Assembly (NCBI GenBank): GCA_036405415.1 | Contig: DASWXP010000002.1 | Span: forward strand, 340,803 to 404,802 | DNA: 64,000 bases | Direction: 5' to 3' | Source of the DNA: Minisyncoccota bacterium | GTDB lineage: Bacteria; Patescibacteriota; Minisyncoccia; Phycocordibacterales; Phycocordibacteraceae | Shown: positions 4,901-16,426 of the stretch, in pieces | Numbering within the stretch: position 1 is the stretch's first letter | Layout: every line of letters begins with the position of its first letter | Position numbers and translations under genes: made by a program | The notes under the pieces: generated by a model | Told to the model about the DNA's origin: nothing | What the model saw: the letters and a program-made list of their open reading frames with translations, nothing else | Databases searched by the model: none

Positions 4901-6541
4901 CTAGTTCGCAGGCGTCGTAGTGCCTGTGGTTTGCGCCGTCATCGTCGCAGCGACTGCTGCGCGCGTAAGCGGACCAAAGTATCCCGTTGACGGAACACCA
5001 TGTGTTGCCTGCCACTGCTTGAGCGCGGCCTGAGTCATCGGGCCGAACCATCCAGTTGGTGCCGGGATCGCGAGAAGACCAGCGTCGATAAGCATCTGCT
5101 GGAGCGCGTTTACATCAGCGCCTGTCTTGCCGTACCAGAGGTCAACCGTGAAGTTGTAGGTCGAGGCACCAAGGACCTGGCCCTGGCCAGGCGTAACGCT
5201 ATTTACCTGACCCGTGACGCTAGCGTTAGCATTTGCGTTCGAGTTGGTGTTTACCGTGCGGCGACTGGAGCCGCTCCGGCCAGAACTGCCACCATTGTTA
5301 TCATCTTCTGGCTGAGCAATAACCGGAGCGATCGTCGCCCAGTCATGCTGTTCAGAGAGAGTCGTGTTTTCTGCAACGATACCATTGACTGTGATGATAG
5401 CCTTTGCAGGTTTCTCTGCTGACTCCCACTCGCCGAGCGTCCAGTACTCTTCAGTTCCGTACGTAAGGTTCTGCGTGATGAACGGGGTGCTGAACTGCGT
5501 CGTGTTCTGTGCAAGCAGTTCGTTTAGCTTCGCGAGATTACCCTCATTGACGGCAAGGGTGTTTCCACTCGCGTCCTGAAGTTCAACCGTGAGTTCAGTA
5601 AACGTGCTGATGTTCGACACATTGAAGCCAACATTGATACCTGTGTAGTCGGTACCTGCGTGAGTGTTGAAGTTCTCTGCATTCACAGCAGGGATGATGG
5701 ACTCCCACGCATGCTGTTCAGAAAGCGTCGTATTCTCTACCTCGATACCGTTAACGGTAATAACTGCGGTCGAAGGCTTTGCATAGGACTTCCACTCGCC
5801 GAGCGTCCAGTACTCTTCCGTTCCGTAGGTAAGGTTCTGCGTGATGAACGGGGTGCTGAGCTGAGCTGCACCATTGACGAGAAGTGGGTTGAGCTTAGCA
5901 GCTACACCCGTGTTAGTAACGATTTCATCGCCATTAGCGTCCCTGAGCTCGACCGTAACATCGTCAAGGTTTGCCATGTTCGTAACCCGGAATCCGACGT
6001 TGATGCCCTTGTAGTCAGTACCAGAATGGGTGTTGAAATTCTCAGCAGTTACACCAGGAACAATGCTTTCCCAGGTCGGCCAACTACCACCTTCGTTAAA
6101 GCTTGAGTTAGTGGTTACGAGATCGCCGTCAGCAGTACTTACGGTAATAGTAACGCTTACAGGTCGAGTATCGACACTCCATGCTGCAGGAGCAGGATTC
6201 CAATAGAGCGTGTCACCTGCCTCAGTAAAGGAACCTTCCTTTATAACGAATGGGGTCGTGAGCTGATTGGTGCCTGGTGAATTAATGATGCCAAGCACAC
6301 CAGCATTTGCTGTTTTAGTTACGCTTGAACCGTCTGCACGGTTCAAGGTTACAGTTACCGCTGTTGCGTTTGTAATATCGGTTGTACGGAAACCGACACT
6401 TATGCCCTTGTAGCTTCCATCGACGGTCACGAACTCCTCAGCATCCACCGCTGGAGCGGCATAGACGCTTACAGGAGCTATGGCTGTGAGAAGCGCGAAC
6501 GCAGAAACCATGCTCGCGAGCTTAGTAAAGGTATTAGTCAT
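4901..6541 (-). CDS. secreted repeat protein with C-terminal peptidoglycan-binding (PG_binding_1-like) domain
   Basis: Start taken at the internal ATG 6541 (MTNTFTKLASMVSAFALLTAIAPVSVYA, a signal peptide). Three ~124-aa repeats (NFNTH.GTDY.GINVGF ... STPFITQNLTYGTEEYWTLGEW). C-terminus GADVNALQQMLIDAGLL...GWFGPMTQAALKQWQ resembles a PG-binding domain. Confidence 0.65.
   Translation of the reverse strand: MTNTFTKLASMVSAFALLTAIAPVSVYAAPAVDAEEFVTVDGSYKGISVGFRTTDITNATAVTVTLNRADGSSVTKTANAGVLGIINSPGTNQLTTPFVIKEGSFTEAGDTLYWNPAPAAWSVDTRPVSVTITVSTADGDLVTTNSSFNEGGSWPTWESIVPGVTAENFNTHSGTDYKGINVGFRVTNMANLDDVTVELRDANGDEIVTNTGVAAKLNPLLVNGAAQLSTPFITQNLTYGTEEYWTLGEWKSYAKPSTAVITVNGIEVENTTLSEQHAWESIIPAVNAENFNTHAGTDYTGINVGFNVSNISTFTELTVELQDASGNTLAVNEGNLAKLNELLAQNTTQFSTPFITQNLTYGTEEYWTLGEWESAEKPAKAIITVNGIVAENTTLSEQHDWATIAPVIAQPEDDNNGGSSGRSGSSRRTVNTNSNANANASVTGQVNSVTPGQGQVLGASTYNFTVDLWYGKTGADVNALQQMLIDAGLLAIPAPTGWFGPMTQAALKQWQATHGVPSTGYFGPLTRAAVAATMTAQTTGTTTPAN
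5330..6075. repeat. two ~370-bp tandem DNA repeats inside CDS 4901..6541
   Basis: Near-identical stretches, e.g. 5417-5500 versus 5787-5870 (ctcgccgagcgtccagtactcttc.gttccgta.gtaaggttctgcgtgatgaacggggtgctga), with a 370-bp period. Confidence 0.7.
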
Positions 6542-6751
6542 AAGTTTGCCTAATAGAAGTAATCGCCCGTTATTACCCCAGGTATGCCACTGCAACCTGC
6601 CCCAGTAATACCTTCACCCTATTCTTCTCAACTCATTTGTCAATAAAAGTTTCTGTTGTGACATGATAAAAAATTCATGTTTTCTTTATGTCTATTCTGA
6701 TCACTTTCAGAGAACGATGCCGCCAGTTTGCGCATGCGGTACCATAGGTCT

Positions 6752-7846
6752 ATGAAATCCTTTAGCGCACTTCTACTTGGAGCACTTCTATTCCTTCCCT
6801 TCACAGGATTTGCTCAAGGAGTAGAAGAGCAGCGTCTCTTGAAGGCGCGTGTGCTCGAAGCCTCCCCTACCACCGAACGGGTCGTGGAAGGTACGAGCAT
6901 CGTGACCGAGACCCAGACCCTCACTATCGAGGTGCTCGAGGGCGAAGACCGGGGACGGACCGCTACCTTCGAGAACGATTTCACGCAGCTTGAGGAAGGC
7001 GACATATTCTACGTACGCCATACGGTCGGCGGATTCGATCTTGAGACCTGGGCGGTCTCAGACCCGTATCGCCTCGACGTACTCATGTGGGTGGGCCTCG
7101 CGTTCCTTGCACTAGTGTTCCTCTTCGGAGGACTCCAGGGCATCCGCGGACTCGCTTCGCTTGCCGGAAGCCTCGTGCTTATCTTCTACCTCCTCCTGCC
7201 CGGCATCTATAGCGGCGGGTCTCCAATTCTCATATCACTTGGCGTGGCAGGACTCATCATCATCGTGGGTTCCTACGTGACGCACGGCGTAAACAAGACC
7301 ACGACCGCAGCCATGCTCGGCATGCTCGCGACAATCCTCGTCACGGGCCTTGCGACCTATCTCGTTATCGGCATGGCCTCGCTCTCGGGATTCACTTCCG
7401 AGGAGAACGCGTACCTTAACTTCGCGACCAGCGGCACGCTCGACATGGTTGGCCTCCTGTTCGGCGGCATCATGATCGGTCTTCTCGGCGTCCTCTATGA
7501 CAGTGCGATTGGCCAGGCGGTCGCGGTAGAAGAGCTGTATACCGCGGGCACGAATTACACCCGCAAGCAGGTATATCTGCGCGCGCTTCGGATCGGGCGC
7601 GAGCATATCGGCGCCTTGGTTAACACGCTCGCTATCGCATACGTAGGTGCGTCGCTCCCGCTCCTGCTTCTCCTGAAGCAGTCGACGGCGAGTCCGCTCT
7701 ATCTTCTCAATAGCGAGATCTTCGCCACGGAGATCATCCGCATTCTCATGGGAAGCATCGGTGTGATACTCGCCGTGCCGATCACGACGCTCATCGCCAC
7801 ATCGCTCCTCAAGGGAACAAAGCCTTCTGGGATCCACGCGCATTAG
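6752..7846 (+). CDS. YibE/F-like multi-pass membrane protein
   Basis: ORF 6728..7846. Preferred start is ATG 6752 (MKSFSALLLGALLFLPFTGFAQG, a signal-like peptide) with aggt 8 nt upstream. Soluble N-domain followed by about 6 Gly-rich TM helices, as in the YibE/F family. Confidence 0.5.
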   Translation: MKSFSALLLGALLFLPFTGFAQGVEEQRLLKARVLEASPTTERVVEGTSIVTETQTLTIEVLEGEDRGRTATFENDFTQLEEGDIFYVRHTVGGFDLETWAVSDPYRLDVLMWVGLAFLALVFLFGGLQGIRGLASLAGSLVLIFYLLLPGIYSGGSPILISLGVAGLIIIVGSYVTHGVNKTTTAAMLGMLATILVTGLATYLVIGMASLSGFTSEENAYLNFATSGTLDMVGLLFGGIMIGLLGVLYDSAIGQAVAVEELYTAGTNYTRKQVYLRALRIGREHIGALVNTLAIAYVGASLPLLLLLKQSTASPLYLLNSEIFATEIIRILMGSIGVILAVPITTLIATSLLKGTKPSGIHAH

Positions 7847-7889
7847 CGCTTGACTCTATCCTCTGCTGGTATAGAGTGCTGGTATTACT

Positions 7890-7908
7890 AATGCAAATTA
7901 ATTGCATT
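7890..7908. promoter_or_regulatory. 19-bp AT-rich imperfect palindrome AATGCAAATTAATTGCATT (candidate Fur-family operator)
   Basis: 8 of 9 symmetric pairs. It sits 6 bp upstream of the CDF transporter ATG, in an operon that ends with a Fur-family regulator gene. Confidence 0.45.
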
Positions 7909-7913
7909 TACCC

Positions 7914-8564
7914 ATGTCACTTACCACGTTTGCTAAGAATCATCCGCTCGCGATATACGGACTCGTCTGGCTATTGAGTCTCTTCATCGTGTCGCTCGAG
8001 CTCGTGGGCTCGGGCGTCTCCGGGAGTCAGGCGCTCCTTGCGGACGTAGGACATGTCGCAAGTGATACCCTGCTCGCGCTCGTCCCGCTCGCAGCGCTCC
8101 TCTTCGTGCGCCTCGGATGGAACTACCGCAAAGTCGCGTTCGTGAGCAGCCTCGCCGCGGTAGCGATTCTCCTGTGGGTTGGCGTGCACGTAGGCGGCGA
8201 AGCATGGGAAGCGCTCATGGGAGAGGAGCATCACGACCATGAAGTTAATGGCGTATTCCTCTTCCTATTCTCAGGCGTAGCAGCGATCGCGAACCTGATC
8301 CAGCACCGCCTTCTCTCGCGCATCGATCCTGAGCATCATCATGGCGCGCACCAGGGCCTCCATTTCCATGTACTCATGGACCTCGTGAAGAACGTGGCGC
8401 TCCCGGTGCTCGGCATCCTGATCGCGCTCGAGTTCCTCCCTGACCACGCGGACCTCTGGGCAGCGCTTGTTATCGGGGTGCTTCTCATCATCCGCGCCCT
8501 CATGCTTCTATATACGACCCTCTTCCAGGAGAAGCGCCTGCATGCAGGTCATGACCACGCCTAG
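7914..8564 (+). CDS. cation diffusion facilitator (CDF) family transporter, short form lacking the C-terminal cytoplasmic domain
   Basis: Six TM helices and His-rich loops (EEHHDHE, EHHHGAHQGLHFH, HAGHDHA). ATG at 7914; the TTG at 7902 would overlap the palindrome. Confidence 0.6.
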   Translation: MSLTTFAKNHPLAIYGLVWLLSLFIVSLELVGSGVSGSQALLADVGHVASDTLLALVPLAALLFVRLGWNYRKVAFVSSLAAVAILLWVGVHVGGEAWEALMGEEHHDHEVNGVFLFLFSGVAAIANLIQHRLLSRIDPEHHHGAHQGLHFHVLMDLVKNVALPVLGILIALEFLPDHADLWAALVIGVLLIIRALMLLYTTLFQEKRLHAGHDHA

Positions 8565-8967
8565 CCACGAGCAGCTACTTCGCGATGCGGGACTGCGTGC
8601 CACGCCTGGGCGCATAGCCTTGCTCCACGCGCTCGCAAAGGAACCGAAGCCCGTACCGGTTGAGAAGCTCGCCAAGTCTCTCAAGGGGAAGCTCAACCAG
8701 GTGACCTTGTACCGAGCACTCGAGGCATTCGAGAACGCGAACATCGTGACCCGCGCAGGGCTCGGGCACGAGCACGCGCACTATGAACTTCTCCTTGACC
8801 GCCCGCATCACCACCATGCTGTATGCCGTGCCTGCGGACATGTCGAGGATATCGAGATCCCGCATTCACCTTCTCCCGAGAAGGATGCCGAACGACGCGC
8901 CAAGGGATTCGCTTCCATAGACCGCTATTCCCTTGAGTTCTTCGGGACCTGCCGCTCGTGCGCTTAG
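8542..8967 (+). CDS. Fur family transcriptional regulator (Zur/Fur/PerR-like)
   Basis: Winged-helix N-terminus (GLRATPGRIALLHAL), a C-terminal HHHAVCRACG...C..C metal site, and a His-rich patch. Overlaps the end of the CDF gene by about 23 nt (operonic). Confidence 0.75.
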   Translation: MQVMTTPSHEQLLRDAGLRATPGRIALLHALAKEPKPVPVEKLAKSLKGKLNQVTLYRALEAFENANIVTRAGLGHEHAHYELLLDRPHHHHAVCRACGHVEDIEIPHSPSPEKDAERRAKGFASIDRYSLEFFGTCRSCA

Positions 8968-9081
8968 CGCTATACACACAGGCAGTAGCAGCACCTGGAA
9001 GCGGCACTTGCGGTGCTAGAATCTAGGTACAAATATGAATCCTTCATTCGGGACGCGCAGTGCTGTCCCGGCAGCTCGCGT

Positions 9082-9750
9082 ATGAGGATACTTGTTGTCG
9101 AAGACGAGGCGCGTATCTCCCGCTTCCTCAAGGAATCGCTCGAAGCAGAGTTCTTCGCGGTCGATGTCGCTGAGGACGGCGAGCAAGGCTCGTACTTCGC
9201 GCGCACCAACGAGTATGATCTCGTCGTGCTCGATAACATGCTCCCGAAGAAGGACGGGTTGCAGGTATGCAAGGAAATCCGCGCGAGCGGCAAGACCATG
9301 CCGATACTCGTGGTGTCCGTGAAGACCGGAACGTTCGATAAGGTGGACCTACTCGACGCAGGTGCGGACGATTATCTCGCCAAGCCTTTCGTGCTTGAGG
9401 AGCTCCTCGCAAGAGTGCGCGCGCTCATGCGGCGACCTACCGTCATCGAGAGTGACGTGCTGCGGGTCGAGGACATCGAGCTCGACGCGAAGGCAGGAAC
9501 CGTTCGCCGCAGCGACCGCGACATCACACTCACGCGCAAGGAATTCATGCTCCTGCAGTACCTCATGCGGAACGAGGGGACGGTGCTTTCCCGCGGCATG
9601 ATACTTGAGCACGTATGGGATATGAGCGTGGACATCTTCTCCAACACCATTGAGTCCCACATCCTTTCCCTCCGCAAGAAGCTCGGGGACACGAAGGACG
9701 ACCGTATCATCCAGACCATCTCAGGACGCGGATACCGCATGGGCGGATAG
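9082..9750 (+). CDS. response regulator transcription factor, OmpR/PhoB family
   Basis: Receiver domain MRILVVEDE...DLVVLDNMLP (phospho-acceptor Asp)...LAKPF, then winged-helix TLTRKEFMLLQYLMRNEGTVLSR...GYRM. Confidence 0.85.
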   Translation: MRILVVEDEARISRFLKESLEAEFFAVDVAEDGEQGSYFARTNEYDLVVLDNMLPKKDGLQVCKEIRASGKTMPILVVSVKTGTFDKVDLLDAGADDYLAKPFVLEELLARVRALMRRPTVIESDVLRVEDIELDAKAGTVRRSDRDITLTRKEFMLLQYLMRNEGTVLSRGMILEHVWDMSVDIFSNTIESHILSLRKKLGDTKDDRIIQTISGRGYRMGG

Positions 9751-9831
9751 CCGCTATCTTTTCTTCATATTTTCGTTATCGCTCTCTGAGAGAGTGTGTG
9801 CGGACTGGTCATTACATACAGGGAGACTCTG

Positions 9832-10503
9832 ATGACCGATGAGATTAGTGATACGAAAGCCGCATACGATCGCATGGGCGTTGCGTACGACGCCCTTTCA
9901 GAAGACTTCCATCAACAGGTCGCCTACCCCGCACTCCTTGCGCTTCTTGAGCGAGGGCTCGGCCCGCTACGAGCCCGAACGATACTGGACGTGGGCTGCG
10001 GTTCAGGGAGACTCGTGCGGCTTCTGCAGCAGAAAGGCGCAATCGCTTCTGGCATCGATCTTTCCGATGGCATGGCGTCGCGTGGCAGAGCAGCGGGAGT
10101 TCCGATAACTACCGGCTCGATGCTCGATCTTCCTTACGAGGACGAATCGTTCGATGCGGTGGTCTCGTACCACTCGTTCAACTATGTTCCGTTCCCGTAT
10201 CAGAGGCGCGCCATCGAAGAGCAGTCTCGAGTGCTCAAGCGCGGAGGAACATTGCTCCTCTCCCTCTTCCATACAGACACACCTGTACGGACTCCGCGCG
10301 CGGTTACGAGCGAAGGCGAGGAGCTCATACTGTATCTCAGAACACTCGATGAGATGCGTGACTTGGTGAGCTCGTGCCACTGCATCACACACCAAGCGCC
10401 GGTAGCGACGCCCGCGCAAGCAGCGCTCGTCCCTGAGAATGTGCGTGCGCTCGTGACCGAACGCCCCTACGCTCTGTTCATCGTCGCGCACCGCATTGTC
10501 TGA
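9832..10503 (+). CDS. class I SAM-dependent methyltransferase
   Basis: Motif I ILDVGCGSGRL, acidic motif II GIDLS, post-II DAVVS. A GGGAG Shine-Dalgarno precedes the ATG. Confidence 0.75.
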   Translation: MTDEISDTKAAYDRMGVAYDALSEDFHQQVAYPALLALLERGLGPLRARTILDVGCGSGRLVRLLQQKGAIASGIDLSDGMASRGRAAGVPITTGSMLDLPYEDESFDAVVSYHSFNYVPFPYQRRAIEEQSRVLKRGGTLLLSLFHTDTPVRTPRAVTSEGEELILYLRTLDEMRDLVSSCHCITHQAPVATPAQAALVPENVRALVTERPYALFIVAHRIV

Positions 10504-10510
10504 ACCCTTC

Positions 10511-10540
10511 GACATCCCGCTTCTGCGGGATGTCTTCTTA
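10511..10540 (+). terminator. intrinsic terminator gacatcccgc-ttct-gcgggatgtc followed by TTCTTAT
   Basis: Perfect 10-bp stem immediately after the methyltransferase stop, then a T-rich tract. Confidence 0.6.
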
Positions 10541-10645
10541 TGCGAAATTCATATTTCGATTACCTTTTCTTGATCGTGGCTCTACATCGGGACTCGTACC
10601 CTTCACTCTGGTTGTTCCTTACACGCATCAGAAAAGGAGTTTGCG

Positions 10646-11620
10646 ATGCACATGTTTACCGGCGTCTCGCTTCCAGAGAATCCAGGCCACGATACGGTCT
10701 ACACGCTTCTGCCGAGCGCTTCAGACGATGCCTACTACCGCGAGCGCACCAACCGGAATATCGGCTGGATAACGGAGACCGAGCAGCAAATCCTCCGGGA
10801 TTCTGTAATCGGCATCGCCGGCTGCGGCGGCATGGGAGGCCTGCTCGCTTCCCTATTCTGCCGGATGGGCATCGGCGAGGTCCGGGTTGCGGATTCTGAG
10901 GTCTTCGATCTCTCGAACGTGAATCGGCAGTTCGGCGCGAGCCGCACGAGCATCGGGCGCTCAAAAGCGCTCGAGACCGCACGGCTCACCCGCGCCATAT
11001 GTGACGACAATACGCTCATGGTGTTCCCGCAGGGCATCACCGAGGAGTCTGCCCAGGATTTCGCCCAGGGATGCCATATCATTCTCGACGAGATCGAATT
11101 CTGGGCAGTAGGGTCCCGCATCCTCCTGCATCAAGCCGCCCGTTCCTTTGGCGCGTCGCTTCTTAACTGCAATGCCGTCGGGTTCGGATCACGATTGTTC
11201 CGCTTCGATCCCGAAGGATTCACCATGGAGGAGCTTCTCGATCTCTCCTATGAGGACGCGAAGGTCCTGCAGGAACGCATTCAGTCCGGGACGGCCAGTA
11301 CCGAGGAAGTAACGCTCGTGATGGAGCGTATGTTCCGCGGCCTGGTGCCGGAACTGCCTGAATACGCTTCGGAAGACGCGGGCTACAGCACCGTCTCTGC
11401 GGTGCGAACACGGCTTCTGACCGAGCAACGTGCATCCATCGTCTCGTCAACGCCGCTCCTCGCCTCAGGATTCCTCGCGACGCATACCGTCTTCGAGCTC
11501 CTGAGTAAGAGTACTATCCCGCGGGTATACCAGCGACCGCCTGCGGCACCGGGCTACCTGATCATCGACGCGGGCTTCCACGAGGCCCGGGTCGTACACC
11601 GGAAAGGATCCGACCTATGA
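10646..11620 (+). CDS. ThiF/MoeB/E1-like adenylyltransferase (no CxxC zinc motifs)
   Basis: Rossmann motif GIAGCGGMGGLLA, SNVNRQ arginine finger, and the conserved Lys and Asp positions (GRSKALE, IILDEIEF). A ~150-aa C-terminal region has no Cys pairs. Shine-Dalgarno aaaaggag. Confidence 0.75.
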   Translation: MHMFTGVSLPENPGHDTVYTLLPSASDDAYYRERTNRNIGWITETEQQILRDSVIGIAGCGGMGGLLASLFCRMGIGEVRVADSEVFDLSNVNRQFGASRTSIGRSKALETARLTRAICDDNTLMVFPQGITEESAQDFAQGCHIILDEIEFWAVGSRILLHQAARSFGASLLNCNAVGFGSRLFRFDPEGFTMEELLDLSYEDAKVLQERIQSGTASTEEVTLVMERMFRGLVPELPEYASEDAGYSTVSAVRTRLLTEQRASIVSSTPLLASGFLATHTVFELLSKSTIPRVYQRPPAAPGYLIIDAGFHEARVVHRKGSDL

Positions 11621-12198
11621 CCGAAGGATTGAGCGTCTTCCTGGCAGAGCGCGAGGAAGACATAAGCGAGGTACACCGCCTCGTTGAGCGCATCTATCTG
11701 GCTTCGTACGGCACCGTGCCAAAGTCAGCCCATGCGTACGGCGCGGTTCGCCGCGGAGATGAGGTGGTTGCATGCCTCGGGTTCGACCACGCCGAGCCTG
11801 ATGGCAGATTCGCGATAGAGCGTATCTACTCGCTCGACCGCAGCACCTATCCGGTTCCTGTCGAGAGCAAGAGCACTGCCCAGTTCGGCCGCCTCGTCTC
11901 GAGCGAGCCGTGTCTCGGTAGGCTCGCAGTACATACCGGCATCTGGTTTGCGGTCAGGTCCGGAAAGCGGCTCGGCATTATCGAGCACACCGATACTATC
12001 CATCGCGTGGCGCTCGGATTCGGCCTTGTGCTCATCGATATACCTGTATGGGAAATCGACCTCAGCGAGACTCTTCCCGGAGACCGCGGTTACTACGAGA
12101 AGCGCGAGGGCAAACCGTACCTCATGGACCTCGAGCGATCCCTTGAGCGTACGGCTGCAAAGCTCCCATCGGACGTTCTCGCGCTTTTCGGGGAATGA
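11617..12198 (+). CDS. hypothetical protein, possible LuxI/FeeM/thermostable-hemolysin-like (GNAT-fold) acyltransferase
   Basis: Start ATGA-overlaps the ThiF stop (translational coupling). ~193 aa. Contains FGRLV and EPCLGRLAV blocks reminiscent of the E-x-S-R-L-A-V motif of autoinducer-synthase-like acyltransferases. The assignment is tentative. Confidence 0.4.
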   Translation: MTEGLSVFLAEREEDISEVHRLVERIYLASYGTVPKSAHAYGAVRRGDEVVACLGFDHAEPDGRFAIERIYSLDRSTYPVPVESKSTAQFGRLVSSEPCLGRLAVHTGIWFAVRSGKRLGIIEHTDTIHRVALGFGLVLIDIPVWEIDLSETLPGDRGYYEKREGKPYLMDLERSLERTAAKLPSDVLALFGE

Positions 12199-12266
12199 TG
12201 TTTTTTCACGATACAAGCTTCTGGTGCGGGCTGCCTCGCATGCCCGCACCTCTATATACTTAGACC

Positions 12267-14222
12267 ATGGCACCGAACCTCACGCCGGATATCCTGCTGC
12301 TTGCGATCGTCGCGGTCGCTAACGTCTCTATCGGGACGTATGTGTTTCTGCGCAAGCCTGAGGACCGAGCGCGACAGGCCTTCTTCCTCTTTGTTACCGG
12401 AGGCGCGCTCTGGGTAGGAGGGTTCGTGCTGCTTTCGCTCACACATAATTTCTCGTTCGACATCGTGACGAACTACGGAGGGCTGCTCCTCATCGCCGGC
12501 ACCCTCTGGTTCGCGCAGAACTTCCCGCGCCCCATCATGCTTCCGGTGCGGTCTTGGCTGCTCTATTTCCCGTTCCTAATAATCGCGGCCGGTGTCATAC
12601 CGCAGCAGCTCATCGTGCTTGGCATTGAGCCGCTTCCGGGTGGCGGCTTCGTGCCGATCGTGGGGCCGCTGTTGCCGCTCTGGAGCCTCATAGCGGTTAC
12701 CTATACGCTCGCTGCAATCTTAATCCTTATATATCGATTCCGGAGATCAACCGGACGCGAGCGCCTGCAGCTCGGATACGTATTCGCCGGCGTAAGCACG
12801 TTCGCTTTGTCTGCCGTCGCGTTCGATATGGTACTGCCCGTATTCGGCGTCACGGAACTCAAAGGTATCGGTCCCCTTACCTCCATCGTCTTCGTGGGAG
12901 CGACCGCCTATGCGATAGCACGGCATCAGCTCATGGATATCCGCATCGTCATACAGCGAGGGTTCACGTACAGCGTCTTGCTCGGACTCATCGTCATCTG
13001 CTACCTGAGCGTGCTCTCCGTACTCGGAACGCTCTTCCCGAATGAGGCGAGCGGCATATCTCTCGCCGCGTCACTCGTTACTATCACGCTCGGCATCATC
13101 GGCGTTCCGTACATCGAACGCTGGTTCAGGAAAGCTACGGATCGCATATTCTTCAAGGGAACGTATGAGTACGCCACCGCTCTTGAGACCCTATCTGCGG
13201 TACTGCATGCGAACGTGGAGCTTTCAGACCTCGTGCGTGAATCAGAGCAGGCGCTTGCGCGTATCCTGAGAGCGACATCCGTCCGCATCGCGCTTGGCCA
13301 AAGCGCTCACAAGAACGCAGTGCTTCTCGTTCCTATTGGCCTTGATGGCGAGCACATCGGCTGCATCCAGGTTGAAGCGAAGCGATCCGGCGACCCGTAT
13401 ACTCCGCAGGACCTCCAGCTCCTCAAGACATTCGCATACCAGGCAGCCACAGCGCTCTCGCGCGCGCAGCTGTACGCTGACGTGAAAGAGCACGCGAGGG
13501 ATCTTGAAGCTAAGGTTGCGGAACGCACCCGGGAACTCTCGCAGACGCAGGCACGCGAGCGGCAGATGCTGAATGATCTCTCGCATAACCTGCAGACCCC
13601 ACTCACCGTGCTCCAGACGAGACTTGATCGCTTGAAGCCGATCCTGAAGGACCAGGCCGAGGTACGCGCGCTCGAGCAATCCCTCGGGAGTTTCTCGGGA
13701 TTCGTCTACGAGCTGCTTTCACTTGCGCGCCTTGAAGGAGGCAGGCGCGTGGCGCGAATCCCGCTTGATCTGAGCGCGCTCGTGAGCGAGCTCGTTGACG
13801 AGATCAGCGTTATCGCGGAGAATCGCGGCATATGGGTTGAAAGCCGTATCGATGAGGGCTTGTATGTAAAGGGCGACGAGAGGCAGCTTCGCGAGGCGCT
13901 CATGAATCTGGCGAGCAATGCACTCAAATACCTGAAACCAGACGGAGAACGGAGCATAGCTTTTACGCTCATGCGAGAGAGCGATGCTGTCGTGCTTGAG
14001 ATACGCGACACAGGTACGGGCATTGCTCCTGAGGATCTGCCACGCATATTCGAGCGGTTCTATCGGGGAAGCCGCGTTCGGGACGACCTGCAGGGCACGG
14101 GCCTCGGGCTCGCGATCGTCAAGCGCATAGTCGAGCAACATAAAGGCACCGTCTCAGCGCAAAGTGTTCATAGTCAGGGTACGACCATGACGGTGCGCTT
14201 GCCGCTCCTTTCGGAGCACTAG
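12267..14222 (+). CDS. sensor histidine kinase with N-terminal ~8-helix integral-membrane sensor module
   Basis: N-terminal 330 aa are almost entirely TM helices. This is followed by a GAF-like linker, HisKA (LSHNLQTPLTVLQTRLDRL with the phospho-His) and HATPase_c (NLASNALKY, DTGTGI, GTGLGLAIV). Confidence 0.8.
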   Translation: MAPNLTPDILLLAIVAVANVSIGTYVFLRKPEDRARQAFFLFVTGGALWVGGFVLLSLTHNFSFDIVTNYGGLLLIAGTLWFAQNFPRPIMLPVRSWLLYFPFLIIAAGVIPQQLIVLGIEPLPGGGFVPIVGPLLPLWSLIAVTYTLAAILILIYRFRRSTGRERLQLGYVFAGVSTFALSAVAFDMVLPVFGVTELKGIGPLTSIVFVGATAYAIARHQLMDIRIVIQRGFTYSVLLGLIVICYLSVLSVLGTLFPNEASGISLAASLVTITLGIIGVPYIERWFRKATDRIFFKGTYEYATALETLSAVLHANVELSDLVRESEQALARILRATSVRIALGQSAHKNAVLLVPIGLDGEHIGCIQVEAKRSGDPYTPQDLQLLKTFAYQAATALSRAQLYADVKEHARDLEAKVAERTRELSQTQARERQMLNDLSHNLQTPLTVLQTRLDRLKPILKDQAEVRALEQSLGSFSGFVYELLSLARLEGGRRVARIPLDLSALVSELVDEISVIAENRGIWVESRIDEGLYVKGDERQLREALMNLASNALKYLKPDGERSIAFTLMRESDAVVLEIRDTGTGIAPEDLPRIFERFYRGSRVRDDLQGTGLGLAIVKRIVEQHKGTVSAQSVHSQGTTMTVRLPLLSEH

Positions 14223-14481
14223 CTTCCCCATCCTCATACCGGACCAGCTATCCGACCTTCGATAGAAGACCGGTGTTGCGCAAGCTGGCCCGATATAAAG
14301 AAACGCAAGCGTGCGAGTCACTGGACAGAGTCTACTTGAACGACCTAAAGGAATTCTAAAATTTCCATAGAGCGAAGATGGAGTGGCAGTTATGCACCGT
14401 GTTCTGCAAAACCTGGTTCCCAGGGCCCATACTTACTAGGTGTCGCGATTATCCGGTTCCTTAAGAGTCATAACGTATCGT

Positions 14482-14685
14482 ATGTCTGCACTTAAGCCTG
14501 TCGCGTTCATCCTCGTTATCGTCGGTGCCCTCAACTGGGGGCTCGTCGGTCTAGGCGGGTTCATGGGTTCTGAATGGAATCTCGTGAACATGCTGTTCGG
14601 CATGTGGCCGATGGTCGAGTGGATCATCTATATCCTCGTCGGCCTTTCGGCTATCGTCCTCCTCGCAACCAAGCGCAGGATGTAG
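14482..14685 (+). CDS. DUF378-family small membrane protein
   Basis: MSALKPVAFILVIVGALNWGLVGL matches the hallmark VGALNWGL of DUF378 proteins; 67 aa with two TM helices. Confidence 0.65.
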   Translation: MSALKPVAFILVIVGALNWGLVGLGGFMGSEWNLVNMLFGMWPMVEWIIYILVGLSAIVLLATKRRM

Positions 14686-14700
14686 CGGCACCCCCAAGCG

Positions 14701-14737: not shown

Positions 14738-16426
14738 CTACCACCAGATGCCTTGCATCCCGGCTATCTTCATATGCGTTCTCGTTACCGGACCGAGGTA
14801 GCCTAGAGCGGGCGCGATGCCGTGCGCCGCCTGGTACCCAGCGAGTGCAGCGCGCGTCAGTGCACCAAAGAGATCAGTCTCGCTCCCTGCAGAACCAGGG
14901 CCCGTATTCGCAACTACGAATCCATTTGCATTCAATAGCTTCTGGAGCGACCGCACGTCCTCTCCCGACATGCCTGTCACAAGATCCCGGACCGGCAGCG
15001 GTACCGTGCTGTCATGCTTGTTCACTTCCTCCTCCGGGAAGAGTCTCGGGTACTGGCGCATGAGCTCCTCTGCGCGTGCGGTATTGCCCATTCGGATAAG
15101 TGCTTTCACGCGGGACTGGATGCTGGTCCCGGTTCTCCGGCTTGACGTCTCCTCGACCTCAGTCGGAGCAGGTTCCGGCTCAGTAGATATGTACTGGAAG
15201 AGGCGCACGCCGGGCGTGCCGTTCTGTCCTACCGCGACTGTTATGCGCTCATCCTCGTAATAGAGATGCGGCTCGCCGAGAAAGTCCATGGCGAGGTCGA
15301 CTACCCCGCTCGTTCCGAAGCTCGATATCGGATCCCCATCCAGATCGTAGGCGCGAAGCACGCCCTGGTCTCCGGAGAGAATGCCTCCTACCACGAGCGC
15401 CCCATCGCCATCAGCAACCATACCCTGGATCTGGTCGTTCACCGCCGAATCGTCCACGGTTACGACGTCGAAATCTTCTCCATCCTCGTCGATTCGGACA
15501 TAGAACGCATGACGGTCGAAGTTATCGCTCACGTACCCGCCGAGCATGATGCTTCCGTCGCTCGCGATCGAGAGGTGCTCGCTGCGGGCATAATCCACGC
15601 CAGGAACGGCTTCGGTGAAGATACCGTTCGACGCGAAGCTCGTATCGAGATCGCCATCGGCTTCAACCGCATAGACTGCCACATCGTCTCCCACATACCC
15701 GCCAAGCAGGAAGCTGCCGTCCTCGCGCATGGCCATGTCGGTCAGGTTCGTGTTCGCGAACGTGGTGATACCGTTGATACCGAACGAAGGATCAAGGACT
15801 CCGGCTTGGGAATAGCGCGCAAGGAACGAGTCTCCCTGATCGTTATCCTCGCCGAGCACGATGATGCGGTTGTTGCTGTCGACCTCGACCGCAAGGAAGC
15901 TGTACTGGTCGCCGATCATGAGCGCGTACCCGTCATGGGTCGTTCCGCTCTCGCTGTAATGGTTGCCGAAGGAGGTATCAAGGACTCCTCCTGAGGACAA
16001 CCGCCCGATAAAGCCGCCATAGCTGTCTGTCGTATTGCCGTAGTTTCCGACGAAGAGGATCTGGCTCCCCTGGAGCGCGATATCTCGCACCACCGCTAGG
16101 CCATTGATATCGAACGTGAACGAGCCTCCGGTGCCGAACGAGGTATCGAGCGCTCCGGCTGCGGTAACGCGCACGATGCTCGACGGGTAGGGATCCGGAC
16201 CCACGAACGAGTTCGCGGAGAATATGATCTTCCCGTCCGGCTGCTTCAGGAGTCCCGTTACCTCAGGCTCGCTGTCAGCAAGCCCTACCTGGGTCGCGGT
16301 GAAGAACACCGAACCATCGGTATCAAAAGCGGTATCAAGCCCGCCATACGCGGCGTGAACGAAAGTAGACGGCACTGCGAGAAGCGATAGGAGCATCGCA
16401 GCAAAAAATGCGGTATTCCTGAGCAT
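14738..16426 (-). CDS. secreted delta-60-type repeat protein with C-terminal peptidoglycan-binding domain
   Basis: Signal peptide MLRNTAFFAAMLLSLLAVPSTFVHA. About 8 repeats each containing D(T/P)SFG..G. C-terminal GEDVRSLQKLLNANGF...LFGALTRAALAGYQAAHGI resembles PG_binding_1. Confidence 0.6.
   Translation of the reverse strand: MLRNTAFFAAMLLSLLAVPSTFVHAAYGGLDTAFDTDGSVFFTATQVGLADSEPEVTGLLKQPDGKIIFSANSFVGPDPYPSSIVRVTAAGALDTSFGTGGSFTFDINGLAVVRDIALQGSQILFVGNYGNTTDSYGGFIGRLSSGGVLDTSFGNHYSESGTTHDGYALMIGDQYSFLAVEVDSNNRIIVLGEDNDQGDSFLARYSQAGVLDPSFGINGITTFANTNLTDMAMREDGSFLLGGYVGDDVAVYAVEADGDLDTSFASNGIFTEAVPGVDYARSEHLSIASDGSIMLGGYVSDNFDRHAFYVRIDEDGEDFDVVTVDDSAVNDQIQGMVADGDGALVVGGILSGDQGVLRAYDLDGDPISSFGTSGVVDLAMDFLGEPHLYYEDERITVAVGQNGTPGVRLFQYISTEPEPAPTEVEETSSRRTGTSIQSRVKALIRMGNTARAEELMRQYPRLFPEEEVNKHDSTVPLPVRDLVTGMSGEDVRSLQKLLNANGFVVANTGPGSAGSETDLFGALTRAALAGYQAAHGIAPALGYLGPVTRTHMKIAGMQGIWW

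Follow-up and report, generated by a model that had tools for sequence, protein, structure and literature searches.

A zinc-less ThiF-family enzyme coupled to a GNAT-fold partner within a two-component cassette of Patescibacteria: a candidate two-enzyme small-molecule synthase

The DNA analyzed here is a stretch of 64,000 nucleotides (the window) from a Minisyncoccota bacterium of the Patescibacteria, or candidate phyla radiation (CPR) (assembly GCA_036405415.1, contig DASWXP010000002.1, positions 340,803 to 404,802 of the forward strand); coordinates below are those of the window. Its subject is a pair of overlapping genes, one encoding a ThiF-family adenylating enzyme and the other a predicted acyltransferase of the GNAT fold, related to acyl-homoserine lactone (AHL) synthases. 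A first-pass annotation, made from the sequence alone, had described the pair as a Cys-less ThiF/E1-like enzyme translationally coupled to an unknown partner.

10646..11620, + strand: ThiF-family adenylating enzyme, zinc-less, 324 aa; predicted substrate a small-molecule carboxylate
11617..12198, + strand: predicted GNAT-fold acyltransferase of the AHL-synthase/FeeM/T_hemolysin branch, 193 aa; functional partner of the ThiF-family enzyme

The overlapping gene pair

The assignment of the first gene to an E1-like enzyme with a complete set of ATP-binding and adenylation residues was upheld. Pfam PF00899 (ThiF) matched residues 36–286 (E 7e-27), and the expected residues are all present (GCGGMG at 59–64, Asp-83, Asn-93–Arg-94–Gln-95, Lys-107, and Asp-148); across 107 homologs, these positions (G59-x-G61-G62-x-G64, D83, N93-R94-Q95, K107, D148) are invariant or nearly so. 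More than 100 homologs share 48–86% identity with the protein and cover 93–99% of its length. As had been noted, no C-x-x-C motif occurs in the 324 residues. The label "Cys-less" does not hold: there are five cysteines (positions 60, 72, 119, 143, and 175), of which Cys-60 and Cys-143 are kept in at least 90% of the family, and it is the zinc-binding CxxC pair and the crossover-loop cysteine that are missing. In alignment with Escherichia coli ThiF, Cys-169 and Cys-172 are replaced by Met-194 and Leu-197, the crossover-loop Cys-184 by Glu-260, and the second zinc-binding CxxC falls past the C-terminal end of the window protein.

An AlphaFold2 model of the protein was confident over the whole chain (predicted local distance difference test score, pLDDT, 96.1), and 228–235 of its residues could be aligned with MoeB and AclA (9EGB) by structural comparison. 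The model and the alignment with E. coli ThiF and MoeB place a helical insert of ∼55 aa at residues ∼198–255, the position of the crossover loop. The claim of a unique C-terminal extension of 150 aa was not borne out, because homologs run through this region and the Pfam match continues to residue 286; as modeled, it is a standard ThiF C-terminal subdomain minus the zinc site plus the helical insert. At the other end, the ThiF domain begins at residue 36 and is preceded only by a short β-hairpin, so that a peptide-clamp domain or one of the size of a RiPP recognition element (RRE; RiPP, ribosomally synthesized and post-translationally modified peptide) is absent from the N terminus of the protein. 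Similarity to MccB and PaaA is marginal (E ∼6e-5, residues 46–116 only).

Curated NCBIfam models for the classical members of the superfamily were missed by a wide margin. The window protein scored 60.7 bits against the ThiF model TIGR02356 (cut-off 275), 45.6 against the MoeB model PRK08762 (cut-off 449), 30.3 against MoeZ (cut-off 647), and 34.6 against TcdA (cut-off 304), on which score identity with TcdA was rejected; the UbaA cut-off was likewise far from being reached. No open reading frame (ORF) of 40–160 aa ending in GG was found anywhere in the window, nor were ThiS/MoaD carrier or pathway genes, the neighbors of the ThiF-family gene being unrelated to them. The statement that no GG-terminated β-grasp protein, JAB peptidase, or E2 is encoded within 5 kb was also confirmed. 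A sulfur-carrier E1 was rejected on the missing zinc site and crossover cysteine, the lack of a carrier gene in the window, and the curated models, and a defense-system E1 (CBASS or Bil type) was dropped, since PADLOC returned only generic E1 Rossmann matches for the ThiF-family protein and none for the partner.

The two genes are functionally coupled, since they overlap in the window and are joined in single polypeptides elsewhere. The TGA stop codon of the first shares bases with the ATG of the second (ATGA), as the first-pass annotation had reported, and a Shine–Dalgarno-like GGAAAGGA lies 9–16 nt 5′ of the partner ATG at 11617. ThiF homologs of ∼500–525 aa and 49–54% identity bear an additional C-terminal GNAT domain, and the domain order of these fusions is the gene order of the window. 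In five of them (P0050, P0068, P0080, P0057, and P0037), this domain is homologous to the window partner (BLASTP, 7e-22 to 6e-12); in four others (P0035, P0040, P0073, and P0077), its place is taken by a GNAT domain of the Acetyltransf_5, LuxI (Autoind_synth), or FeeM type. The two kinds of fused domain gave only a weak match to each other in hhalign (36% probability), and for this reason no close kinship between them is claimed, only a common fold and a common position in the locus.

Related loci were collected by scanning GTDB species genomes, which returned 80 loci; ORFs were called in these and searched with hidden Markov models (HMMs) built here. In 48 of 57 distinct related loci, a GNAT partner lies directly 3′ of the ThiF-family gene or is fused to it, and in 2 further loci, the partner slot is filled by a FeeM-like protein. 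No LuxI model is matched by the most frequent partner type (44 of the 57, window included). The FeeM-like proteins (L034 2783–3409 and L046 6877–7518; ∼210 aa; E 2e-3 and 3.7e-7, respectively) were missed by both partner HMMs; with this third kind of protein in the partner slot, GNAT modules seem to have been exchanged while the rest of the cassette stayed constant. A separate observation concerns two loci from metagenome-assembled genomes of Rickettsiales (L039 and L040, ∼5960–11330), where the gene for a ThiF of the window family comes before three others, encoding in turn a TonB-dependent receptor, a YfiR/HmsC-like protein, and a histidine kinase; no GNAT partner was detected in either.

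Placing the partner itself called for a fold search, because neither single-sequence nor profile searches of PDB sequences returned a significant match. An exhaustive HMMER search yielded 316 cluster representatives of the partner family at 50% identity, mostly stand-alone proteins of 180–215 aa, compared with only 6–8 relatives recovered by a word-indexed homolog search. Among 104 family members, 48 matched T_hemolysin (PF12261; best E 1.4e-8) and 23 matched FeeM (PF21926; best E 1.9e-6) at E ≤ 0.01; the sole other Pfam match was to one DUF at chance level, and Autoind_synth (PF00765) was matched neither by the window partner nor by any of the 104. An AlphaFold2 model computed on the alignment of these 104 sequences (pLDDT 97) has the AHL-synthase variant of the GNAT fold. 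Its best structural matches are AHL synthases, with FeeM, an N-acyl amino acid synthase, likewise close. From the fusions, the Pfam links of the family, and the modeled fold combined, the partner, no longer without an assignment, is predicted to be a divergent acyltransferase of the AHL-synthase/N-acyl-amino-acid-synthase branch of the GNAT fold. Literature searches on the biochemistry of PF12261, on E1-like proteins together with thermostable hemolysin, on Tenacibaculum AclA, and on N-acyl amino acids of Patescibacteria found nothing useful.

Relation to known ThiF–acyltransferase systems

The first-pass annotation had proposed a phylogeny of the ThiF domain. In a neighbor-joining tree of 84 ThiF domains, with the window family represented by the 57 distinct loci, the window family was monophyletic in 92 of 100 bootstraps and a clade resembling OxzB, the adenylating component of oxazolone synthetase, in 100 of 100; 99 of 100 bootstraps set the two apart from E. 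coli ThiF, MoeB, and TcdA. Eleven residues conserved in the window family are common to the OxzB-like clade and are not found in the three E. coli proteins. The best NCBIfam model for the window protein is PRK08223 (NF006077; 142.8 bits, E 1e-41), followed by PRK14851 and PRK14852. The proteobacterial distant relatives pass PRK08223 at 413–435 bits; they are didomains of ThiF and a nitroreductase/Acg-type oxidase, or ThiF proteins with such an oxidase adjacent, and an acyltransferase of the Acetyltransf_5 (PF13444)/FeeM/TIGR03694 type usually adjoins them. Loci of this OxzAB layout were L066, L076, L081, and L084, and in L068 and L078 the oxidase is separate. By these comparisons, proteobacterial proteins of the OxzAB layout are the closest ThiF relatives outside the window family. 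The NCBIfam model of the Rv1355c family gave 53.6 bits on the window protein and a similar 63 bits on a member of the OxzB-like clade, so the three groups are mutually distant.

The OxzA/OxzB oxazolone synthetase was described by de Rond et al. (bioRxiv 10.1101/2020.06.11.147165) from proteobacteria, Pseudoalteromonas rubra among them. OxzA and its counterparts TyzA and TrzA use acyl-CoA to N-acylate an amino acid (PMC10404671; PMC12856293; review PMC12596934). The ThiF homologs OxzB (A0A5S3UR53), TyzB (P95234), and TrzS (Rv1355c) then carry out the ATP-dependent cyclization of this N-acyl amino acid to an oxazolone (bioRxiv 10.1101/2020.06.11.147165; PMC10404671; PMC12856293), and the product is desaturated by a flavin oxidase from the nitroreductase superfamily (PMC10404671; PMC12856293; PMC12596934). 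Oxazolones are broken down by hydrolysis or alcoholysis when exposed to acid or alcohols (PMC12856293). When the oxidase step is blocked, the saturated cyclized intermediate of TrzS accumulates and can be detected, and the D217A variant of TrzS showed that the aspartate corresponding to Asp-148 of the window protein is required for activity (PMC12856293). A cluster from Stieleria combines a methyltransferase with ThiF, nitroreductase, and acyltransferase genes (PMC12479983).

The window pair resembles OxzAB in being a two-gene unit of a predicted GNAT-fold N-acyl amino acid synthase and a zinc-less ThiF adenylating enzyme, and it resembles the TyzABC/TrzAS systems of Mycobacterium tuberculosis in combining a synthase of AHL-synthase/FeeM-like fold with a homolog of the cyclizing ThiF protein. 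The differences are also clear. OxzB is a ThiF–nitroreductase didomain and the mycobacterial systems use a separate or fused flavin oxidase, giving conjugated tyrazolones and tryptazolones, whereas no oxidase accompanies the window pair. This was examined with an HMM built from six ThiF-fused oxidase domains: a nitroreductase-type oxidase was absent from the 57 related loci (∼6 kb on each side) and from all ORFs of at least 60 aa in the window, and matches were confined to the OxzB-like loci; an oxidase could still be encoded elsewhere in the genome, beyond the window. The window partner belongs to the T_hemolysin/FeeM-like branch, whereas the acyltransferases of the OxzAB layout are of the PF13444/TIGR03694 type. 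Finally, OxzAB does not lie within a two-component system, as the window pair does. From these comparisons, the window system would be an oxidase-less variant of the acyltransferase–ThiF small-molecule synthases, embedded in a two-component system.

Two further groups of ThiF proteins bear on the substrate. TcdA acts on tRNA, converting the N6-threonylcarbamoyladenosine modification (t6A) to cyclic t6A (ct6A), and has no acyltransferase partner, unlike the window enzyme. The moiety on which it works is the N-carbamoyl-threonine of t6A, comparable with an N-acylated amino acid. More distant ThiF relatives were found on Firmicute plasmids (31–33% identity across 90% of the protein; E-values of 1e-66 to 1e-69 with the family HMM). 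On Staphylococcus plasmids (L092 4953–6712 and L094 3965–5771), the ThiF gene overlaps a downstream gene resembling aspartate/ornithine carbamoyltransferases, which is broken into two ORFs on pSE45A5-4; on Bacillus cereus pBCM301 (L093 4962–8196), it overlaps a formyltransferase gene. Each of these loci is near a major facilitator superfamily (MFS) transporter and a winged helix-turn-helix (wHTH) or ArsR regulator, and from their gene content they look like small-molecule cassettes. Since acyl-, carbamoyl-, and formyltransferases of three unrelated folds, each of which loads an acyl-type group onto an amine, share the same slot, the arrangement speaks for N-acylated, N-carbamoylated, or N-formylated amino acids as substrates of this ThiF superclade; the repeated coupling suggests a wider rule that could guide genome mining.

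The first-pass annotation had expected a carboxylate of a peptide or small molecule as substrate in place of a ThiS/MoaD carrier, and this is supported by the lack of a zinc site and crossover cysteine, by the absence of a GG carrier from the window, by the failure to reach the NCBIfam ThiF and MoeB cut-offs, and by the relatives of OxzAB layout. Of its two options, the comparisons favor a small molecule over a peptide.

The two-component cassette and its intergenic elements

The pair lies between the genes of a two-component system, with a methyltransferase gene and two intergenic elements upstream.

9082..9750, + strand: OmpR-type response regulator, receiver and winged-helix domains (Pfam Response_reg 3.4e-27, Trans_reg_C 1.4e-25)
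9832..10503, + strand: S-adenosylmethionine (SAM)-dependent methyltransferase, Methyltransf_11 class (Pfam 3.1e-22); accessory member, present in a subset of lineages
10511..10534, + strand: terminator-like hairpin between the methyltransferase and ThiF-family genes, with a 10-bp stem (7 G-C pairs) and a 4-nt loop, followed by TTCTTAT
10535..10645, + strand: intergenic leader; putative promoter or regulator-binding region of the ThiF–partner(–kinase) unit
12267..14222, + strand: membrane sensor histidine kinase, 651 aa, with an N-terminal seven-transmembrane (7TM) region, GAF, HisKA, and HATPase_c domains (Pfam)

The response regulator ORF is open from a GTG at 9013, and its likely start is the ATG at 9082, which gives 222 aa, as in its orthologs (the L089 ortholog has 222 aa). 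Among 51 related loci with enough flanking sequence, out of the 57, an ortholog of the regulator (phmmer 1e-51 to 6e-112) lies directly 5′ of the ThiF-family gene in 35, and an ortholog of the 7TM-GAF kinase lies 3′ of the pair in 46; four of the five loci with no kinase are labeled as non-CPR organisms, among them Legionella norrlandica. The kinase scored 29.9 bits against HisKA_7TM (cut-off 28.6), 30.5 against GAF, and 104 against HATPase_c, with HisKA itself just under its cut-off (25.7 bits, cut-off 26.9). In most loci, the phmmer E-value of the downstream kinase was 1e-84 to 1e-163, compared with ∼1e-13 for unrelated kinases of the same loci, and these kinases are therefore specific orthologs and not generic ones. 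The order regulator, (methyltransferase), ThiF, GNAT, kinase was seen in six loci from exact protein look-ups as well as in the GTDB set. In Patescibacteria, the pair is thus inherited as one cassette with the OmpR-type regulator and the 7TM-GAF sensor kinase, and this cassette is widespread.

Comparable arrangements are familiar from quorum sensing. In LuxM/LuxN, CqsA/CqsS, LqsA/LqsS, and PhcB/PhcS/PhcR, the gene or genes of the synthase adjoin those of a histidine kinase, polytopic in the membrane, and of a response regulator. PhcB belongs to the SAM-dependent methyltransferases, of which the window cassette also has one; the synthase enzymes are unrelated. Bernard et al. (2020) listed 18 CPR "LuxI homologs" beside sensor kinases as candidate quorum-sensing systems (PMC7567580). 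The cassettes of P0040 and P0073, whose partner domain is of the Autoind_synth/Acetyltransf_5 type, may be pairings of this kind. A ThiF gene goes unmentioned in that paper, and no paper was found that links these cassettes with ThiF or oxazolone chemistry. LuxI AHL synthases are like the partner in fold, but its obligatory pairing with a ThiF protein speaks against an ordinary SAM-dependent AHL synthase.

The methyltransferase ORF is open from a GTG at 9796, with a likely start at the ATG at 9832. Two proteins, P0162 and P0241, fuse an N-terminal partner-like GNAT to a C-terminal Methyltransf_11 domain, and the window methyltransferase aligns over its full length with their C-terminal halves (33–34% identity, E 7e-38 and 1e-37). 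The P0162 gene directly follows a ThiF-family gene, in a locus with the order regulator, ThiF, partner–methyltransferase fusion (L091 2190–3581). A similar methyltransferase adjoins the pair in L001, L022, L035, L053, L089, and L090. On these sequence comparisons, the methyltransferase is a true accessory member of the cassette.

The hairpin (GACATCCCGC-TTCT-GCGGGATGTC) follows the methyltransferase stop codon directly. Its stem is kept in L089, L090, and L001, and in L001, both sides of the stem have changed. The hairpin suggests that the regulator–methyltransferase genes and the ThiF–partner–kinase genes may be separate or attenuated transcription units. The leader that follows contains a block, AAATTCATATTTCGATTACCTTTTCTTGAT, kept in L089 and L090, and ends in a strong ribosome-binding site (AAAGGAG, 8 nt 5′ of the ThiF-family ATG at 10646). 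It is not conserved as coding sequence in L001. An Rfam scan of 8800–14700 placed no RNA family in the leader, and a scan for consensus promoters gave nothing beyond shuffle expectation. Direct repeats with 11-bp spacing (TTTAVR-N5-TTTA) were found 5′ of the ThiF-family gene in 9 of 35 loci, compared with 0.3 in shuffles, the pattern having been chosen post hoc. Besides the leader of the window (10535–10645), loci with AT-rich repeats between the regulator and ThiF-family genes include L002, L005, L009, L021, L025, L035, and L042; examples are CTTTACA three times in L009, TTTAAG/TTTAAT in L005 and L035, and TTTAGA in many. As evidence for an OmpR-type binding site, the repeats amount to no more than a hint. 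The 68 bp that separate the partner and kinase genes also contain an inverted repeat (GTGCGGGC...GCCCGCAC, 12224–12249) with 8-bp arms and a 10-nt loop; no T-run follows it.

Predicted chemistry, role, and flanking genes

We favor, with moderate confidence, reading the two genes as a two-enzyme small-molecule synthase and not as a protein-tagging or sulfur-carrier system. From the homologies, the pair probably makes a small molecule derived from an N-acyl amino acid, which may act as a signal. In the first step, the GNAT partner would move an acyl group from acyl-CoA or acyl-acyl carrier protein (ACP) onto the amino group of an amino acid, as suggested by its fold and by the characterized enzymes OxzA, TyzA, and TrzA. 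In the second, the zinc-less ThiF-family enzyme would adenylate the free carboxylate of the resulting N-acyl amino acid, a prediction based on its intact ATP/Mg residues and on OxzB, TyzB, TrzS, and TcdA. The acyl-adenylate would then be captured intramolecularly with release of AMP: attack by the amide oxygen would yield a 5(4H)-oxazolone, and attack by a side-chain nucleophile a ring of the lactone type; alternatively, the adenylate might be handed to another nucleophile. Since the pair comes without a flavin-dependent desaturase, the expected product is a heterocycle that is saturated and fairly reactive, or another activated derivative, not a conjugated tyrazolone or tryptazolone. The SAM-dependent methyltransferase would supply a tailoring step in this lineage, and the molecule could be made under two-component control or could itself be the ligand sensed by the kinase.

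Several points weigh against this synthase reading. The function of the window ThiF family is predicted from sequence, fold, and context, and the link to OxzB, TyzB, and TrzS was drawn through proteins of the same layout and NCBIfam models, not through the sequences of those enzymes themselves. Identity with the OxzB-like clade is only ∼28%, and the 142.8 bits against PRK08223 fall short of its cut-off of 266. The oxidase of the known systems is missing from the 57 related loci and the window, and the gene order, ThiF before acyltransferase, is the opposite of that in oxzAB; that acylation precedes adenylation is an assumption made from homology. For the partner, the T_hemolysin match stood at 15.3 bits (E 0.018), below the gathering score of 27, and no NCBIfam model was matched, the family having none. 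The E-x-S-R strand motif of LuxI aligns with Gln-89-Phe-Gly-91-Arg-92, so that the arginine alone is retained and the catalytic chemistry may differ. Patescibacteria, moreover, usually lack fatty-acid synthesis, which puts the acyl donor in question.

The role of the product is less settled than the enzymology. A distinctly possible alternative, which we hold short of an even chance, keeps the same two reactions and gives them another purpose: the product would modify the envelope or serve as an antimicrobial or defensive metabolite induced by the two-component system (compare pmrCAB and vanRS–vanHAX), and the kinase would not sense it. Enzyme genes in one operon with a regulator and a kinase are common outside quorum sensing. 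The non-CPR relatives also lack the two-component system and have MFS exporters and MarR, ArsR, or wHTH regulators, which are typical of secreted metabolites. The terminator-like hairpin, which parts the regulator–methyltransferase genes from the ThiF–partner–kinase genes, fits this role as well. Two points speak against it and are not decisive: nearly all CPR loci have the regulator gene on one side of the synthase genes and the kinase gene on the other, and the sensor is of the 7TM kind with no large extracytoplasmic domain, the kind that binds lipophilic autoinducers in LuxN and CqsS.

The non-CPR case is illustrated by Legionella norrlandica (L036 5980–10200), where the pair (47% identity) is followed by an α/β hydrolase, an MFS transporter, and a MarR regulator. 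Divergently oriented genes upstream of this pair encode a heme-oxygenase-like di-iron enzyme and a cupin. L. norrlandica is a cultured organism that carries the pair and would be a tractable host.

More tentatively, and with some doubt on our part, the cassette may be a self-contained signaling circuit in most CPR lineages that carry it, in which an ATP-activated, cyclized N-acyl amino acid is sensed by the 7TM-GAF kinase and the OmpR-type regulator responds. Such a circuit would have as its product either a saturated oxazolone or a ring of the lactone type formed by a side-chain nucleophile, the latter of which would represent a SAM-independent route to AHL-like molecules. If the circuit exists, it would mean new autoinducer chemistry and a new receptor class in ultra-small, host-dependent bacteria; with the product as the kinase ligand, there would be a tractable handle on cell–cell or symbiont–host signaling in CPR bacteria, as well as a new way of making reactive azlactone or lactone signals enzymatically. 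Given the tiny genomes and host dependence of these organisms, a conserved cassette of four to five genes is likely to matter for their biology. The characterized systems of an N-acyl amino acid synthase and a ThiF protein are proteobacterial or mycobacterial, and a flavin oxidase is part of every one. The window locus belongs to a sizeable sister family (316 cluster representatives for the partner; for the ThiF, 197 related stretches in GTDB species genomes), which differs in having no oxidase, a divergent acyltransferase not recognized by current Pfam or NCBIfam models, and, in Patescibacteria, a dedicated two-component system.

An unlikely alternative to the proposed chemistry reverses its order: the ThiF-family enzyme would adenylate a free acid, such as a scavenged fatty acid or amino acid, and the partner would use the acyl-adenylate on an amine, independently of CoA or ACP. 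Fusion or translational coupling would let a labile acyl-adenylate pass directly, and a route free of CoA and ACP would make sense in organisms that generally lack fatty-acid synthesis. The partner also lacks the Glu and Ser of the LuxI motif (Q-F-G-R in place of E-x-S-R), matched no CoA-dependent GNAT model above threshold, and comes with no oxidase at the related loci. Against this, we know of no GNAT or AHL-synthase-fold enzyme that uses an acyl-adenylate as donor. The carbamoyl- and formyltransferases paired with the Firmicute ThiF proteins have donors of their own (carbamoyl phosphate and formyl-tetrahydrofolate), which fits a transferase acting first, and in all characterized relatives (OxzAB, TyzABC, and TrzAS), the acyltransferase comes first, with acyl-CoA as donor (PMC10404671; PMC12856293).

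Very improbable is a RiPP pathway, in which an MccB/PaaA-like ThiF would act on a tiny precursor peptide that escaped annotation, the GNAT would be a tailoring or self-immunity acetyltransferase like the C-terminal domain of MccE, and the methyltransferase would resemble MccD. An MccB-like RiPP enzyme was rejected because the ThiF-family protein has no clamp or RRE-sized domain, its similarity to MccB and PaaA is marginal, and it is found fused directly to a GNAT, unlike the enzymes of RiPP clusters. The partner fold is nearer to AHL synthases and FeeM than to RimL-type immunity acetyltransferases. Between the genes, which overlap, and in the leader, which is not kept as coding sequence in L001, no conserved small ORF could be made out, although very short ORFs are possible. 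Hardly credible at all is a classical sulfur-carrier or ubiquitin-like E1 (ThiF, MoeB, CBASS Cap2, Bil, or Bub) with its carrier encoded elsewhere, or a TcdA-type tRNA ct6A dehydratase, in view of the missing CxxC zinc site and crossover-loop cysteine, the lack of any GG-ending small ORF in the window and of a nearby E2 or JAB, the scores far under every ThiF, MoeB, MoeZ, UbaA, and TcdA cut-off, and a GNAT acyltransferase coupled or fused to the enzyme in ∼50 of 57 related loci, with no β-grasp protein detected.

Within 5 kb, the pair is surrounded by genes for peptidoglycan-binding proteins, YibE/F, a cation-efflux protein, Fur, and DUF378, besides the response regulator, methyltransferase, and histidine kinase. 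A block of a YibE/F-like membrane protein, a cation-efflux protein, and a Fur-family regulator (6728–8967) lies directly 5′ of the cassette and is syntenic in L089 and L090. Two secreted-looking proteins of ∼560 aa flank the region (4901–6595 and 14738–16426, both on the − strand), each with a C-terminal PG_binding_1 domain. One of the two also has a DUF5122 β-propeller repeat, and three internal repeats of ∼120 aa can be seen in the translation of the upstream protein (4901–6595).

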